Part shown: piece after piece, positions 9,463 through 20,610 of the stretch
Layout of the letters: each line of letters begins with the position of its first letter
Position numbering within the stretch: the stretch's first letter is position 1
The notes under the pieces: model-generated
Seen by the model: the letters and a program-made list of their open reading frames with translations, nothing else
The model's database searches: none
Told to the model about the DNA's origin: nothing
From: Candidatus Aenigmatarchaeota archaeon
GTDB lineage: Archaea; Aenigmatarchaeota; Aenigmatarchaeia; Aenigmatarchaeales; Aenigmatarchaeaceae
NCBI GenBank assembly: GCA_043814985.1
Contig: JBDRJK010000012.1
Coordinates: 1-36,338 of the forward strand
DNA: 36,338 bases
Direction: 5' to 3'
Position numbers and translations under genes: made by a program

Positions 9463-9966
9463 ATGAGCAAAAGAGTTTTGATGGTAATCGCGCCCAATGA
9501 TTTCAGGGACGAGGAGTTCTTTGAAACCAAAGGTGTTCTGGAGGATTCAGGAATAGAGATAACTGTCGTCAATTCCACAGGCCAGCCCTCAAAAAGCATG
9601 TTCGGCAAGATAGTCACGCCGGACAAGAACTTCTATGATGCTGAAAGTGAGGAATATGATGCAATAGTCTTTGTCGGGGGTCAGGGAACGCATGCTTACT
9701 TCGACAATAAGAGAGCTCTCAACTTGGCTAAGGAATTCAACGAGTCAGGAAAGATAGTTGCGGCAATATGTATAGCCCCTGTGATACTTGCTCGCGCAGG
9801 TTTGCTATCTGGTAAAAAAGCAACAGTGTTTCCATCTGGCAGGAATGAGATTACTGCTGTGGGAACATACACAGGATCTAAAGTTGAGAAGGACGGCAAT
9901 ATAATAACAGGTAATGGTCCAGAAGCAGCAGTTGAATTCGGGAAAGCGATTGCTGAAGCCCTTTAG
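9463..9966 (+). CDS. DJ-1/PfpI family protein
   Basis: FRDEE, YDAIVFVGG, AAICIAP (nucleophile Cys) and IITGNGP motifs. Confidence 0.93.
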   Translation: MSKRVLMVIAPNDFRDEEFFETKGVLEDSGIEITVVNSTGQPSKSMFGKIVTPDKNFYDAESEEYDAIVFVGGQGTHAYFDNKRALNLAKEFNESGKIVAAICIAPVILARAGLLSGKKATVFPSGRNEITAVGTYTGSKVEKDGNIITGNGPEAAVEFGKAIAEAL

Positions 9967-10063
9967 TAAATTTCTTAAACAATGGATTCATATTCTTAAT
10001 AGATAGCCCCGTCGTCTAGTGGTCAAGGACAATGGCCTCTGGAGCCGTAAACGGAGGTTCGAA

Positions 10064-10477
10064 AGATTTATAAGGAGGTATGTTCCTCTTTAAGTCATGA
10101 ATATAAGAACAGCTGGTTTGATAATATGGAAATGTGAAGGAACTAAGAGGGGAAATAAAAGAATGGTTGAAATGTGTAATTCAGATGATTGGATAATTTC
10201 CACCTTTATGAAGTTTCTAATCAAAGAGATGAAAGTTCCAAAAGGAAAGATTAGATTAAGAATATTCCTTCATAAAGACGATGTTGAAAATGAAGCAAAA
10301 AAACATTGGAAAAAAATTACAAACCTAAAAGCAAAAAACTTTACAAAAACGATGTGGAAAAAAAGAGGAAAGTGGAATAAAAAGAAACTCCTCTTTGGAA
10401 CTTTAGTCATAAGAGTACATGATAAAAATCTTTTTAATAAAATAAAAGAGGAAGCTAAAACCTTATAAATCCGAATA
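10064..10477 (+). mobile_element. protein-coding BHB tRNA intron (candidate homing intron)
   Basis: BHB: T-stem, central helix TTCG(10058-61)/CGAA(10472-75), bulges AAA(10062-64) and TAT(10476-78), 11-bp perfect intron helix GATTTATAAGG(10065-75)/CCTTATAAATC(10461-71). Confidence 0.9.
10097..10468 (+). CDS. intron-encoded single-motif LAGLIDADG-like putative homing endonuclease
   Basis: N-terminal helix TAGLIIWKCEGTK (LAGLIDADG-like, acidic E retained), CNSD..II..F..FL, W..IT and GTLVIRV strands; very basic; lies wholly inside the intron. Confidence 0.78.
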   Translation: MNIRTAGLIIWKCEGTKRGNKRMVEMCNSDDWIISTFMKFLIKEMKVPKGKIRLRIFLHKDDVENEAKKHWKKITNLKAKNFTKTMWKKRGKWNKKKLLFGTLVIRVHDKNLFNKIKEEAKTL

Positions 10478-10524
10478 TCCTCCCGGGGCTACTTTTTATT
10501 AATAAAAAAAGCTATTTCTCATAC

Positions 10525-11352
10525 ATGTGGATTGTCAAGGCTTCAGGAGAGACAGAGAAATTTGATATTAGAAAAATCAAAAGAACCTGTTTAAAGTCCG
10601 GGACTTCTAGGAACCTGGCAAACAAGATAGCCAATGAAGTTAAGAAAAAAACTTACAGTGGAATGTCAACAAGGCAAATCCTGCAGATGACCTTGAAACT
10701 TCTTGGAAAACAGAAACCCTTTATCGCAGCAAGGTACGACCTGAAGGGGTCACTGTTCAGGCTGGGACCGGCAGGCTTTGCCTTTGAGAGGTTCATTGCT
10801 GAAATACTGAAGGATAATGGTTTCAAGACAAAGTTGGATACGATGAACAAAGGGTTCTGCGTTGATCACGAGATAGACATAATCGCAACATTGAAAAACA
10901 GGAACTACATGATAGAGTGCAAGTATCACAACCTTCCCGGTATCTACACAGGATTAAGGGAGGCCCTGTACACGTATGCAAGGTTCTTGGATTTGAAAAG
11001 CGGATCAAAGAAGGGATTGTGCAAGGACTTTGATCAGCCTTGGCTTATCTGCAACACCAGATTCTCCGAGGATGCTGTCAAGTACTCAAAATGCGCGGGC
11101 TTGAATCTGGTTGGGTGGGACTACCCAAAGAAAAAGGGCTTGAAGGACCTTATGGAAAAAAACAAGCTTTACCCAATAACCATGATAAGGAATCTTGACA
11201 AGTTCTCCCAGGAAAAGCTGTCAATAGCGGGCTTAGTCTTAATAAAAGACCTTACTGAATTATCTATTAAGGAACTGCACAAGATCACAAAGATTCCCGT
11301 AAAGAAATTAAAAACACTTGTCAACGAGGCAGAGAGGATAACATATGGTTGA
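10525..11352 (+). CDS. ATP-cone plus Mrr-like (PD-(D/E)xK) restriction endonuclease domain protein
   Basis: N-terminal IVKASGETEKFD..KI (ATP cone); GFAFERFIAEIL, HEIDIIA and MIECKYH. Confidence 0.85.
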   Translation: MWIVKASGETEKFDIRKIKRTCLKSGTSRNLANKIANEVKKKTYSGMSTRQILQMTLKLLGKQKPFIAARYDLKGSLFRLGPAGFAFERFIAEILKDNGFKTKLDTMNKGFCVDHEIDIIATLKNRNYMIECKYHNLPGIYTGLREALYTYARFLDLKSGSKKGLCKDFDQPWLICNTRFSEDAVKYSKCAGLNLVGWDYPKKKGLKDLMEKNKLYPITMIRNLDKFSQEKLSIAGLVLIKDLTELSIKELHKITKIPVKKLKTLVNEAERITYG

Positions 11353-16595: not shown

Positions 16596-18134
16596 TTACT
16601 TCTTGAACCAAAGTTCCCATCCAATTATAACAACTGCTGCTATTGCTATTATCACTACACCAAGTTGCAAAATGTTTTTAGGAATAGCCTCGAACAAACC
16701 TGTCGGTGGTAATCCCAAGGTCAATGTCACTTCCTTTTCTGCTGTTGCTTCCTCGTTTGAGGTTGCTGTGAAAGTCATTGTCTGGGTCTCTGTCACGTTC
16801 TCAGGAACATAGATTATTATCAGGTAGTCTTTCGACTCTCCTGCTCCTATGTCGCTTGACAACGGGAATACTAATACCCAGTCGCTTGGAACTCCTGCAA
16901 CCGTCATTTCAACTCCTGTCAGTCCTGTGTCGCCGTCGTTGTTAACAGTTAGAACCATCGTGTCATTCTGTCCAGGTTCTACTGCTATTGAGTTCTCGCC
17001 AGCTACTGACAGTGCTACTGTTGGTGTTACTGGTTCTTCTTCTACAGGAGATACAACTTCCTCTTCTACAGGTATCTCTTCTGGAACTTCTATTGGAACT
17101 ACAACCGGTTCTGTAGGTGCGATTTCTTTTCCAATGGCCAGCTCTGCTCCAGCAGTCAAGGTTGAGTATGTCCCATCAACGGTCCATATTCCCTCGTTCC
17201 CTGCTGTGTATGTGCTGTCGCTCCATTTTCCTCCAGCTCCATTGTCAATGTCCCATAATGTATTGTCTGTAACATCAATTTGGTTGCCGTATATGTCGCT
17301 TGCTATTGCACTAAACACGATTCCTTCCCCAGCATTCACTGCTGACATTTCTGGGATTATAGCTAGTGAAACTAACTTTCCAGCGCTGACACTCACGGTT
17401 GAGACTGTAGAAAGTTCGTTCACCTTGTCCTCTACTGTGACCTTCTGGCTTCCTGCTGTCTTCAGCTTCATTGTGAATATCTTGTAGCCGTTGTCTGCAG
17501 TGTTGAATGTGTAGGTCTCTGGCAGTATTGCCTTGGCGTCTGTGGAAGCAAAGCTTACTGTTCCTGTGTAGCCGCTATCTATTCTTCCGGAATTGTCATA
17601 GGCGAAGACAGTCACGCTTAGCGTGCTTCCTGCCTTTAACTTGCTTGCTGTAACCACTTTCAGACGTGCAGCGACTGATGTTCCGACCCTTGTTGTCATA
17701 GTTCCGGTCTGTACACCGCCTCTTGCGTCAACTGTCAACCATTCCATTCCATAGTTACCGCTTGCGCTTGGTGCCTGAACTGTCATGTCAAAATTCAAAC
17801 TCTGGCCGCTTGCTATTCCACTTCCACCCGTTGTCCATGTTATCCTGTATGGATACATTTGTCCTGTTCTTGTTGTGATTTTGTATGTCCAACCTTGTGG
17901 TGTGGTTATGTCCTGTACAGAGTACACTGGCTTTTGGTCCACTTCTGGAATCACAAGCTGTACGGTTACAATGCCGTCAGTGCCTGTGTTCTTTACGTTC
18001 AGAGAGATTTCCTCCATCATTCCCATAGGTATTTCTGAGGGGTTGATGGTCACTGTTGCTGCATGAGATGCCATAACTGCTGTCACTGAAAGAATCAATA
18101 ATAATACTATTGGTGCAAATTTTGCTAATTTCAT
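16596..18134 (-). CDS. cell-surface protein with Ig-like/NEW3-like domains and C-terminal TM anchor
   Basis: signal peptide; beta-rich domains; P/E/V linker; PTGLF then TM then KK at the C-terminus. Confidence 0.85.
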   Translation of the reverse strand: MKLAKFAPIVLLLILSVTAVMASHAATVTINPSEIPMGMMEEISLNVKNTGTDGIVTVQLVIPEVDQKPVYSVQDITTPQGWTYKITTRTGQMYPYRITWTTGGSGIASGQSLNFDMTVQAPSASGNYGMEWLTVDARGGVQTGTMTTRVGTSVAARLKVVTASKLKAGSTLSVTVFAYDNSGRIDSGYTGTVSFASTDAKAILPETYTFNTADNGYKIFTMKLKTAGSQKVTVEDKVNELSTVSTVSVSAGKLVSLAIIPEMSAVNAGEGIVFSAIASDIYGNQIDVTDNTLWDIDNGAGGKWSDSTYTAGNEGIWTVDGTYSTLTAGAELAIGKEIAPTEPVVVPIEVPEEIPVEEEVVSPVEEEPVTPTVALSVAGENSIAVEPGQNDTMVLTVNNDGDTGLTGVEMTVAGVPSDWVLVFPLSSDIGAGESKDYLIIIYVPENVTETQTMTFTATSNEEATAEKEVTLTLGLPPTGLFEAIPKNILQLGVVIIAIAAVVIIGWELWFKK

Positions 18135-19722: not shown

Positions 19723-20610
19723 TTACTGATTAGCATTATCCTCTGTTTTGACTTCTTCCTTGGGGGCTTCCTCAGCCTTTGGTTCTTCCTTTACTTCTTC
19801 TGTTTTTGTTTCTTCGGCTGGTTTCTCTTCTTTTGGGGCATCCAATTTTAGTTCAGCTTCCAATGCCTTTGCTTCCATCTGAGCTTTAGCTAGCATGAAG
19901 CCTATTGTCTCCTTTGTCGGGTAATCAGCATTGATGGACAAGTTGAATGCGTTTTGTATTGCCATTTGAATATCATTCAACAATTTAGTCTCGTCAACGA
20001 ACATGTCCTCTGCCTTATAGACAGTCCCTCTCTCATCAAAGACAACAACATTCAAGCCAACACTCATTGGCTGTAATTTCAGTAATTGTAAAGCTGAAGC
20101 AAGATCCAATGAAACTGGCTGTCCTGCCTTACAAGCCACAAAGTCCCTCATGACAGCAATCTTACCCTTGTCTACTTTCGCTGGAATTTTCACCTTGCTC
20201 AAGGTTGAGATGGCTGGTCCAGGCATCAGTTCAGTTGGCCCGGCCTTTATCTCTATGTCCTCTTCAGGCATATCTCCCGGCTTTGCTGACGCGGGAATTA
20301 TCTGCTTCTTTATCGCCATGAAAAGCTTGAAGGGGTCCTCGTTTGTCAATATTAATGCTGGATAGCCCTTGATGTATTCCTTGAGATTCTCCTTCTTGGC
20401 TTTTTCCATTGCGTATAGAATCATTCTCCTCTTGGCAACCCTTATCAGGGCCCTCCCTTTCAAATTCATCTTTATCTTCTGCAAAGCAGAAGCGGGTGTC
20501 TTGCACAAGTCCAGGACTCCTATGATAGGATACTTATTCATAAGGCTGGTCAGATCTTCAACTGTCTTTATTTTGTCCGGCCTTACAGTTTTTCTACCTT
20601 TTTTCTCCAT
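19723..20610 (-). CDS. rpl10: 50S ribosomal protein L10 (P0)
   Basis: LQKIK..LKG, ALILTNEDPFKL, AKPGD...I.IKAGPT..MPGP; acidic tail. Confidence 0.96.
   Translation of the reverse strand: MEKKGRKTVRPDKIKTVEDLTSLMNKYPIIGVLDLCKTPASALQKIKMNLKGRALIRVAKRRMILYAMEKAKKENLKEYIKGYPALILTNEDPFKLFMAIKKQIIPASAKPGDMPEEDIEIKAGPTELMPGPAISTLSKVKIPAKVDKGKIAVMRDFVACKAGQPVSLDLASALQLLKLQPMSVGLNVVVFDERGTVYKAEDMFVDETKLLNDIQMAIQNAFNLSINADYPTKETIGFMLAKAQMEAKALEAELKLDAPKEEKPAEETKTEEVKEEPKAEEAPKEEVKTEDNANQ

Follow-up and report, generated by a model that had tools for sequence, protein, structure and literature searches.

How archaeal tRNA introns arise, and how they move between tRNA genes, is a long-standing question; the known mobile introns of the bulge-helix-bulge (BHB) kind that bear homing endonuclease genes all lie in rRNA, according to the available text of PMC2738675. 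The question is raised in concrete form by a 36,338-nucleotide (nt) stretch of DNA from a Candidatus Aenigmatarchaeota archaeon (GenBank assembly GCA_043814985.1, contig JBDRJK010000012.1, positions 1 to 36,338 of the forward strand; this whole stretch is called the window). Here a tRNA-Gln(CUG) gene is interrupted in its T-loop by a 414-nt intron, most of which is an open reading frame (ORF) of 123 amino acids (aa). Is this a working tRNA gene whose intron is a homing element, or has the tRNA gene been invaded by something else? The interpretation favoured here, with a probability of about two in three, is that the tRNA is spliced from a strict BHB precursor and that the intron homes by means of a small LAGLIDADG-type endonuclease, the intact gene for which lies within it.

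A tRNA-Gln(CUG) gene split at T-loop position 59/60

The element consists of the following parts:

10005..10063, forward strand: 5' exon of tRNA-Gln(CUG), from the sequence, ARAGORN on the joined exons and a partial Rfam tRNA match
10064..10477, forward strand: BHB intron of 414 nt at T-loop position 59/60, from the minimum free energy (MFE) fold, the cofold and a splice-site scan
10478..10491, forward strand: 3' exon of tRNA-Gln(CUG), from the sequence and ARAGORN on the joined exons
10053..10075, forward strand: 5' half of the BHB, from the fold and the sequence
10461..10483, forward strand: 3' half of the BHB, from the fold and the sequence
10097..10468, forward strand: ORF of 123 aa, a putative homing endonuclease of divergent, single-domain, LAGLIDADG-like type, from the ORF, its homologues and a structural model

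The 5' exon corresponds to tRNA positions 1-59 and contains the acceptor strand, the D-arm, the anticodon arm (CTG), a variable region of 4 nt, the 5' strand of the T-stem and the first six bases of the T-loop, terminating in GGAGG-TTCG-AA. The 3' exon supplies position 60 (T), the T-stem strand CCTCC (10479-10483), the 3' strand of the acceptor stem (10484-10490) and the discriminator A (10491); it does not encode the CCA end. ARAGORN identified the two exons, when joined in silico, as tRNA-Gln(ctg); the cloverleaf was regular, the T-loop measured 7 nt and the variable region 4 nt. The insertion of 414 nt at 59/60 of a tRNA-Gln, which a preliminary description had proposed from the sequence alone, was therefore recovered with exact coordinates.

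The intron ends were examined by folding. The unconstrained MFE fold of the full 487-nt precursor contained a strict BHB (hBHBh'), comprised of the 5-base-pair (bp) T-stem, a 4-bp helix (UUCG/CGAA), two bulges of 3 nt each (AAA in the 5' half, UAU in the 3' half) and a perfectly paired closing helix of 11 bp, and a cofold of the two ends of the precursor alone gave the same BHB at -23.3 kcal/mol. In the 5' half, GGAGG (10053-10057) and TTCG (10058-10061) are followed by the bulge AAA (10062-10064), with the cut after 10063, and by the 5' strand of the closing helix, GATTTATAAGG (10065-10075). In the 3' half, the second strand of the closing helix, CCTTATAAATC (10461-10471), is followed by CGAA (10472-10475), the bulge TAT (10476-10478), with the cut after 10477, and then CCTCC. 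With the cuts placed at these canonical positions, behind the second base in either bulge, the 7-nt T-loop is restored perfectly. Both the motif and the cut sites thus agree with those of the preliminary description. A strict BHB should be a substrate for any type of EndA, according to the available text of PMC5829648.

The splice sites were also sought by brute force. Among 25,600 pairs of sites around the ORF, only pairs near 10063/10478 produced a tRNA, and all 69 tRNA results were tRNA-Gln(ctg). In its unspliced form the gene was not called by ARAGORN with or without the intron option (the intron mode of which covers anticodon-loop introns only), and the Rfam tRNA model gave a partial match only (10014-10069, 16.9 bits). 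No Rfam family reached its gathering score anywhere in the window, and there is accordingly no indication of a group I or group II ribozyme in the intron. It had been anticipated that tRNA finders would overlook this gene, and both programs did so.

The G+C content is 0.285 in the intron, compared with 0.60 in the exons and about 0.39-0.40 in the genome, where the intron is present as a single copy. A whole-genome scan for T-loop introns of like design (12-1500 nt) returned 14 candidates, of which only the one described here had credible G+C-rich stems.

The junctions are supported by independent assemblies. A 944-nt contig from sequencing run X1, possibly the source sample, matches 9883-10826 with zero differences and spans both junctions, and a contig from run X3, which belongs to a separate study, matches 9500-10201 with zero differences and spans the 5' junction; the intron-bearing sequence is therefore not an assembly artefact. 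The joint 10063->10478, which would mark an intronless allele of the strain, was absent from the contigs of four DNA runs, a result that is uninformative because contigs drop rare variants.

The genome (808 kb in 21 contigs, 91.2% complete and 0.9% contaminated, with the window as contig C12) encodes the proteins that splicing of this kind would use. The preliminary description had suggested establishing the EndA type: there is one gene, of 182 aa, with both N- and C-terminal domains (PF02778 and PF01974), and the enzyme is therefore a single alpha unit. RtcB is also encoded (E=1.3e-173). According to the available text of PMC5829648, DPANN lineages whose tRNA genes are disrupted commonly have alpha4-type EndAs with an extra loop. 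Archaeal rRNA genes are carried by relatives within the same phylum.

The tRNA is probably needed by the cell. A further tRNA-Gln(CTG) gene had also been proposed as something to look for, and neither the Rfam tRNA matches of the genome (38) nor its ARAGORN calls (37) included one. The sole other glutamine tRNA found was the UUG isoacceptor (contig C13, ~20278-20390; L015 479-591), the gene for which is interrupted next to its anticodon by an intron of 39 nt. CAG is the commoner glutamine codon, with a count of 2024 in 275 long open frames, against 1476 for CAA. ARAGORN misread this tRNA-Gln(UUG) as 'tRNA-Stop(tta)', and made the same miscall for its orthologues in G002, G020, G014 and G011.

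The intron ORF belongs to a conserved protein family

The ORF occupies 372 of the 414 intron bases and its TAA stop (10466-10468) lies within the closing helix, as had been described. A HMMER search of 1.84 billion representative proteins returned 612 proteins at E<=1e-3, 20 of them at E<=1e-10; a word-indexed protein search returned the ORF protein itself only. Many of the homologues are of ~120-145 aa, many others are of ~190-260 aa and have an N-terminal helix-turn-helix (HTH), and a few contain the domain twice. Two alignments were used: A1, with 125 of 151 homologues (fragments and the longest sequences having been dropped by hand), and A2, with 46 of 48 homologues sized 100-160 aa. Across the family, little or no variation is seen at six residues (E14, G15, N28, W71, F82 and G101), all of which are retained in the window's protein. 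For the latter, an AlphaFold2 model built with A1 had a mean predicted local distance difference test (pLDDT) score of 95.7. The ORF protein is therefore a member of a real, conserved family.

The protein is rich in lysine (26 of 123 residues). The ORF contains no glutamine codon at all, an outcome with a chance of ~0.044 at the glutamine frequency of the genome, and position N81 is Q in the family consensus.

The family resembles LAGLIDADG endonucleases

It had also been suggested that the ORF is LAGLIDADG-like, and the family is probably a divergent LAGLIDADG-type domain for which there is no curated model. This is indicated by several lines of evidence. A profile built from A2 was compared with the PDB, and all seven matches below E=0.001 were chains of I-DmoI (best 2.1e-4), with the family's 'YWCEGtK' aligned on the second I-DmoI motif, 'YVAEGDK'. 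The E14-G15 pair, near-invariant among the 125 homologues, is situated at the end of the helix formed by residues 3-14, so that a conserved acidic residue is followed by glycine. A structural comparison of the model with 48,161 chains using VIA-align ranked an intein homing-endonuclease domain first (Z 7.5, root-mean-square deviation (rmsd) 2.6, 76 residues aligned) and I-DmoI second (Z 6.5, rmsd 3.1, 81 aligned), and LAGLIDADG proteins, including I-Tsp061I and I-Vdi141I, made up 14 of the 50 matches listed. RidA- and OmpA-like folds were interleaved among these matches.

The longer relatives provide a second kind of evidence. Among long relatives from the same phylum (298-538 aa), LAGLIDADG_3 directly follows the domain in 10 of the 17 that were scanned, and in 7 of those 10 the match exceeds the curated cut-off for LAGLIDADG_3; this tandem resembles the two-domain enzymes and so adds to the likeness. 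In a 191-aa relative, LAGLIDADG_3 matched inside the domain itself (E=7.7e-4).

A homodimer was also predicted. Its score was 0.66, against 0.02 for the best of three controls; the mark used for this score was reached by 20 of 30 solved same-chain pairs and 1 of 23 solved single chains, figures that apply only approximately here, because the prediction was made with a purpose-built alignment. The runs had a contact agreement of at least 91% and a partner pLDDT of at least 86. The two copies are predicted to meet through helix 1 (residues 1-14 in each), where residues 13 and 14 touch and the two E14 residues are adjacent. As LAGLIDADG homodimers have already been solved, the prediction is a measure of likeness rather than of binding. 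The structural neighbours of the ORF in the ESM Atlas are mostly from Candidate Phyla Radiation (CPR) bacteria, and one of them (template modelling score 0.90) is automatically named as a LAGLIDADG homing endonuclease, which is a lead only.

The T-loop intron is absent from orthologous genes

The history of the intron was addressed by searching 40 relatives; the loci returned, together with eight further regions, yielded tRNA-Gln(CUG) orthologues in six genomes. The gene is intronless in five of these (G003, of the same genus, and G019, G006, G010 and G023). In G003 an ATP-cone/Mrr-like gene lies directly 3' of it, and in G019 the same gene follows after one extra ORF. The sixth, in G001 (locus L013, contig G001:C4, reverse strand, ~44157-44246), is of the same genus and has the same downstream gene; its T-loop is normal, and an insert of ~31 nt lies in its D-arm. 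The shared downstream gene in G003, G019 and G001 marks these genes as orthologues. The 5' exon of the window is 91.5% identical to that of G003.

The intron at 59/60 was thus absent from all six orthologues found, including two syntenic loci of the same genus, and as a result the most economical reading of these sequences is that it was gained in this lineage. Intronless alleles in relatives, which the preliminary description had proposed to look for, were accordingly found in five cases, with a sixth that lacks the T-loop intron. Within this one genus, the same orthologous gene is seen in three states: without an intron, with a D-arm intron, and with a T-loop intron that contains an ORF.

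The T-arm, as the putative target, has a modest symmetry: with the centre at tRNA position 57, which lies 5' of the insertion site by three bases, 6 of 9 positions are symmetric in the best arrangement. This weakly suggests a palindromic site for a homodimer.

Short T-loop inserts were observed in tRNA-Glu(CUC) of two relatives of the same order, G032 (L006, G032:C7 ~1240-1375) and G036 (L011, G036:C9, reverse strand). These inserts are ~36-50 nt in length, non-coding and at or near 59/60. Both genes encode CCA, and both are missed by ARAGORN.

Related ORFs occur in other tRNA and rRNA introns

A2 was used to search 371 genomes of the phylum; 87 matches were obtained, in 62 of these genomes. 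Forty-two loci were examined (30 that were returned, and 12 that were fetched for the remaining short open frames), and were distributed as follows:

tRNA introns: 4 of 42 loci (tRNA-Gln of the window; tRNA-Ala of G088, G070 and G292)
in or at interrupted 16S rRNA genes: 9 of 42 loci
short free-standing genes: 5 of 42 loci, three of which abut a tRNA gene of the other strand
long multi-domain proteins: 20 of 42 loci
undetermined context: 4 of 42 loci

The tRNA-Ala loci form a series. In G088, tRNA-Ala(UGC), located in the 16S-23S spacer, has a 471-nt intron at 37/38 with an intact frame of 144 aa. In G070 the tRNA-Ala intron is 284 nt in length and its ORF is truncated; in G292 (L026, G292:C21, reverse strand) the tRNA-Ala(UGC) has a 435-nt anticodon-loop intron with a frameshifted ORF; and in G218 the tRNA-Ala contains only a short, ORF-less insert. 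The tRNA-Ala(UGC) site is therefore represented by intact, truncated, frameshifted and ORF-less copies. Judged from these sequences, this is the pattern that would be expected of a homing cycle, at a site other than that of tRNA-Gln. The tRNA-Ala of G292 also has a second intron of ~36-38 nt, in the T-loop, with bulges AAA/TAT and a central helix TTCA/TGAA, similar in design to that of the window.

The proposal that the intron is mobile, made in the preliminary description, thus has indirect support only: close relatives lack the intron, and ORFs akin to its own are found in other tRNA and rRNA introns in various stages of decay, but no second copy of the Gln-site intron was found.

Brute-force splicing with ARAGORN was applied at eight further loci (L022, L024, L025, L027, L052, L054, L055 and L062) and reconstituted no tRNA; L022, L024, L025, L027 and L052 were consequently counted as free-standing. 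At L058 and L061 the frame runs to the end of the contig, and splice pairs could not be tried. The free-standing relatives at L025 (G098:C10), L052 (G112:C48) and L027 (G052:C3) are of 188-191 aa and abut or overlap (by ~16 nt) tRNA genes on the opposite strand; next to L027 lies a tRNA gene rich in introns, with the anticodon CAT, which was not among the Rfam calls. The free-standing L024 (G001:C7, 1480-1878) is a same-genus relative of the ORF, with 35% identity and no in-frame start before the first helix. Its flanks resemble the start and the end of tRNA-Gln, the scores being reached by 12 of 500 shuffles (5') and 1 of 500 (3') in a weak, post hoc comparison; L024 may be a relic of an older invaded copy of tRNA-Gln, or the resemblance may be due to chance.

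Two of the rRNA loci, L055 (G333:C18) and L063 (G218:C13), are 16S introns; both interrupt a conserved stretch, AAGTCGTAA/CAAGGTAACC, close to the 3' end. One of the two family members has two domains and a classical 'GLIQGDG' motif. By reckoning, the insertion site is near E. coli 1498-1500, and position 1498 is a LAGLIDADG insertion site in CPR bacteria, according to the available text of PMC11270868.

The genome itself (G000) has a paralogue of 403 aa on contig C11 (60956-62167, reverse strand; L064 657-1868), comprised of an N-terminal region and two LAGLIDADG-like parts, the first being the domain of this family, with the motif 'AEATK'. It falls into the HTH-bearing class of 298-538 aa that accounts for 20 of the examined loci across the phylum, and whose members may be domesticated DNA-binding proteins.

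A proposed mechanism

In the mechanism proposed, the whole gene would be transcribed as one precursor, in which the T-stem would act as the outer helix, in the role of the anticodon stem in ordinary introns. The canonical tRNA-Ala intron of G088 has the same order of strands as the window (outer helix, central helix, bulge, inner helix), which is the reason for regarding the T-stem as a stand-in for the anticodon stem. The UUCG of the T-loop would pair with the CGAA at the 3' end of the intron, and the 11-bp helix would close it. EndA, as a single 182-aa alpha unit, would cut after the second base of each bulge, and RtcB would join the exons to form a normal tRNA and probably circularise the intron. 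The ORF would be translated either from the precursor or from the excised intron. The protein would then dimerise through its first helix and cut an intronless tRNA-Gln(CUG) gene around the T-arm, and repair from the intron-bearing copy would spread the intron. Splicing, circularisation, translation, dimerisation in vivo, nuclease activity, target recognition and homing are each proposed by analogy with rRNA BHB introns such as that of I-DmoI, as described in the available texts of PMC4496867 and PMC2738675.

A broader proposal may be put forward tentatively, and is at present more doubtful than credible: that archaeal tRNA introns, including those at T-loop sites, are or were spread by LAGLIDADG homing, and that the short, ORF-less tRNA introns of DPANN are its decayed remnants. 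Possibly, though again with more room for doubt than for belief, the 123-aa homodimer would recognise the partly symmetric T-arm DNA of tRNA genes, and such remnants would perhaps exist in archaea generally.

Evidence against, and alternative explanations

A number of results weigh against a spliced, homing intron with a LAGLIDADG-type gene, and they concern the protein, the mobility and the expression of the element. With regard to the protein, no model in Pfam, PHROG or NCBIfam matched the ORF, no Pfam LAGLIDADG model matched it even at E<=1, and when the 125 homologues were compared with Pfam, LAGLIDADG was absent from the 25 families listed of the 49 matched. The matches to LAGLIDADG_3 came from relatives at a greater distance, and for the most part from a second domain in them. 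Foldseek, a check proposed in the preliminary description, returned nothing from the PDB at E<=0.001 and no LAGLIDADG protein, the best match being weakly OmpA-like (E ~0.02). The VIA-align Z scores are all below 8, a level that, according to the tool, can be attained from a common arrangement alone. The classical LAGLIDADG core is alpha-beta-beta-alpha-beta-beta-alpha; the predicted order here, H-E-H-E-H-E-E-H (H, helix; E, strand), has one helix beyond it. With regard to mobility, neither the 40 relatives nor the 371 genomes of the phylum yielded a second copy of the Gln-site intron (defined by the same site and a close ORF). Searches of genome and metagenome contig collections with single-protein and two-sequence patterns gave matches, none of which was confirmed as a relative, and a DNA pattern in which the 5' exon of tRNA-Gln(CUG) runs into an A at position 60 was absent from the metagenome contigs. 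The sole close relative of the ORF that was found was a 54-aa fragment, 66% identical; aside from it, the best homologue was 39% identical, and all others were at most 43% identical. As no second instance was found, horizontal spread of the Gln element is undocumented. A G001-like species co-occurs in runs X1 and X2 (a joint of 10027->10485, the loose ends of which match G001), and its T-loop is uninvaded. With regard to expression, no RNA runs were listed with the locus, so that splicing and expression are predictions from the DNA; a T5 run within the intron (10431-10435), identical to the presumed terminator downstream of the tRNA, could act as a partial terminator and reduce read-through; and, as the genome is 91% complete, a second copy of tRNA-Gln(CUG) is possible.

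The results on mobility are those that would be expected if the tRNA were spliced and functional but the ORF no longer cut DNA, being either in decay or kept as a maturase for a long BHB substrate or as a DNA-binding protein. No second copy of the element was seen in any scan and the co-occurring relative is uninvaded; in addition, the truncated and frameshifted tRNA-Ala ORFs of G070 and G292 indicate that decay in place is common, the twenty long relatives pair the domain with an HTH and resemble cellular DNA-binding proteins, and LAGLIDADG proteins that are maturases or regulators (WhiA) are among the fold matches. This explanation, an immobile relic or a domesticated intron protein, is nevertheless considered rather improbable: the ORF is full-length, with E14 and the other near-invariant columns kept and a pLDDT of 95.7, and the absence of the intron from all six orthologues argues for a recent gain. 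If the doubt is instead placed on splicing, the locus could be a pseudogene, in which a free-standing cassette has killed the tRNA gene, tRNA-Gln(UUG) reads both codons, and the BHB is fortuitous or unused. Free-standing relatives of the ORF do butt against tRNA genes (L025, L052 and L027), a tRNA-Gln(UUG) gene is present, and no RNA run was listed for the locus. A fortuitous origin is nonetheless unlikely to account for the strict BHB that appears, with its 11-bp and 4-bp helices and its pair of 3-nt bulges, when the full precursor is folded to its MFE, or for the perfect T-loop and cloverleaf that result from excision at the canonical bulges. Neither exon has decayed (the 5' exon retains its 91.5% identity to that of G003), CAG is the majority glutamine codon, and the allele is unchanged in the runs of two studies; a pseudogene is therefore held to be quite unlikely.

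The results on the protein raise the alternative that the ORF is unrelated to LAGLIDADG proteins, being a small basic protein or a chance AT-rich frame, and that the intron is merely a long, non-mobile BHB intron. The lack of a Pfam or Foldseek LAGLIDADG match, the middling VIA-align Z scores with RidA- and OmpA-like folds interleaved, and the 26 lysines in 123 residues would all be consistent with this. A chance frame would not have 612 homologues with conserved motifs, however, and an unrelated protein would not be expected to find only I-DmoI below E=0.001 in the PDB profile search, with the alignment on the catalytic motif. The pairing of the domain with LAGLIDADG_3 in two-domain relatives, the presence of family members in 16S rRNA introns, which are the classical home of such enzymes, and the predicted symmetric helix-1 dimer also oppose it, and it is thought very unlikely. 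The simplest explanation for these observations together is still a spliced BHB intron with an intact LAGLIDADG-type gene.

Comparison with known introns

The closest known systems are the LAGLIDADG-encoding BHB introns of archaeal rRNA genes (I-DmoI, I-Tsp061I, I-Vdi141I and I-ApeI; available texts of PMC4496867 and PMC2738675). Like these, the intron described here has a BHB of the type that is cut by EndA and joined by RtcB, is filled by its ORF and varies in presence among close relatives, and its product appears to be of the same class, with a profile match on the I-DmoI motif. Unlike these, its host is a tRNA gene and its site is 59/60 of the T-loop. The protein also differs from I-DmoI, which has two domains, in being a single domain of 123 aa from a family that the Pfam LAGLIDADG models do not recognise. 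The available text of PMC2738675 describes archaeal tRNA introns as non-coding, gives a length of 11-175 nt for them, compared with 414 nt here, and assigns endonuclease ORFs to rRNA introns.

Position 59/60 is a known non-canonical site for archaeal tRNA introns (available text of PMC5829648). Short introns at this site share with the window both their position and the use of the T-arm as part of the splicing motif, and short T-loop introns near 59/60 are also present in the relatives mentioned above (tRNA-Ala of G292 and tRNA-Glu(CUC) of G032 and G036). In contrast with short 59/60 introns, which are non-coding and often have a relaxed hBH motif, the intron of the window is 414 nt in length, coding and of strict hBHBh' form.

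I-ShaI is a single-domain LAGLIDADG protein from rRNA insertion sequences of CPR bacteria, according to the available text of PMC11270868. It resembles the window's protein in being a small single domain, a homodimer (as predicted for the window's ORF) and a product of stable-RNA genes in ultra-small, uncultured groundwater hosts. It differs in that it matches Pfam LAGLIDADG_1 and is encoded by group I introns in bacterial 23S rRNA, whereas the intron of the window would be spliced by the protein-dependent BHB route from a tRNA. Transfer RNA genes are also among the hosts of group I introns (available text of PMC3984707). Bacterial tRNA group I introns with an endonuclease gene have in common with the window a mobile, endonuclease-bearing intron (putatively so here) inside a tRNA gene; those introns are self-splicing and lie in the anticodon loop, whereas the intron of the window has no Rfam ribozyme match and would rely on the host's EndA. 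I-Ssp6803I, the endonuclease of the cyanobacterial tRNA-fMet group I intron, belongs to a different nuclease class.

No publication that describes a BHB intron coding for a protein within a tRNA gene of an archaeon was found in the full-text literature that was searched; subscription journals were not covered by it, and an earlier report may exist. Introns of this type are known from rRNA, and what appears to be new here is a homing-endonuclease-type BHB intron in a tRNA gene, its T-loop site, and a small LAGLIDADG-like family that has gone unrecognised. A concrete and testable mechanism for intron gain is offered by the present case, in which a strict BHB intron that sister species lack interrupts a tRNA gene that seems indispensable and contains an intact, putative endonuclease gene; the presence of related ORFs, decayed to different degrees, in the introns of tRNA-Ala and 16S rRNA genes strengthens it. 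If the spread of tRNA introns by LAGLIDADG homing were true, it would supply the missing mechanism for their gain and transposition. As introns of such length defeat standard tRNA finders, DPANN tRNA genes are under-counted by these programs. The family, at 612 representative proteins, is widespread and is overlooked by current Pfam models, and a very small enzyme that is predicted to be homodimeric would be of interest as a scaffold for genome engineering.

Other features of the locus

Three further features adjoin or overlap the element:

10493..10497, forward strand: run of five T immediately 3' of the tRNA, probably an oligo-T terminator of the archaeal type, from composition
10073..10100, forward strand: Shine-Dalgarno-like AGGAGG (10073-10078) and a mini-ORF of six codons (10080-10100), read in the sequence
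10525..11352, forward strand: downstream gene with an ATP-cone and an Mrr/AF1548-like nuclease fold, from Pfam; it serves as the synteny marker and lies outside the element

The T5 run at 10493-10497 is presumed to be a terminator from what is generally known of archaeal termination. Elsewhere in the window, the intron mode of ARAGORN reported a 'tRNA-Phe(gaa)' with a 110-nt intron at 16872-17076 on the reverse strand; its stems are mismatched and it has no Rfam tRNA match, and it is probably spurious. The AGGAGG is partly within the closing helix of the BHB, and the TGA of the mini-ORF overlaps the start of the intron ORF (ATGA, 10097-10100), an arrangement that may have some function in the translation of the ORF.

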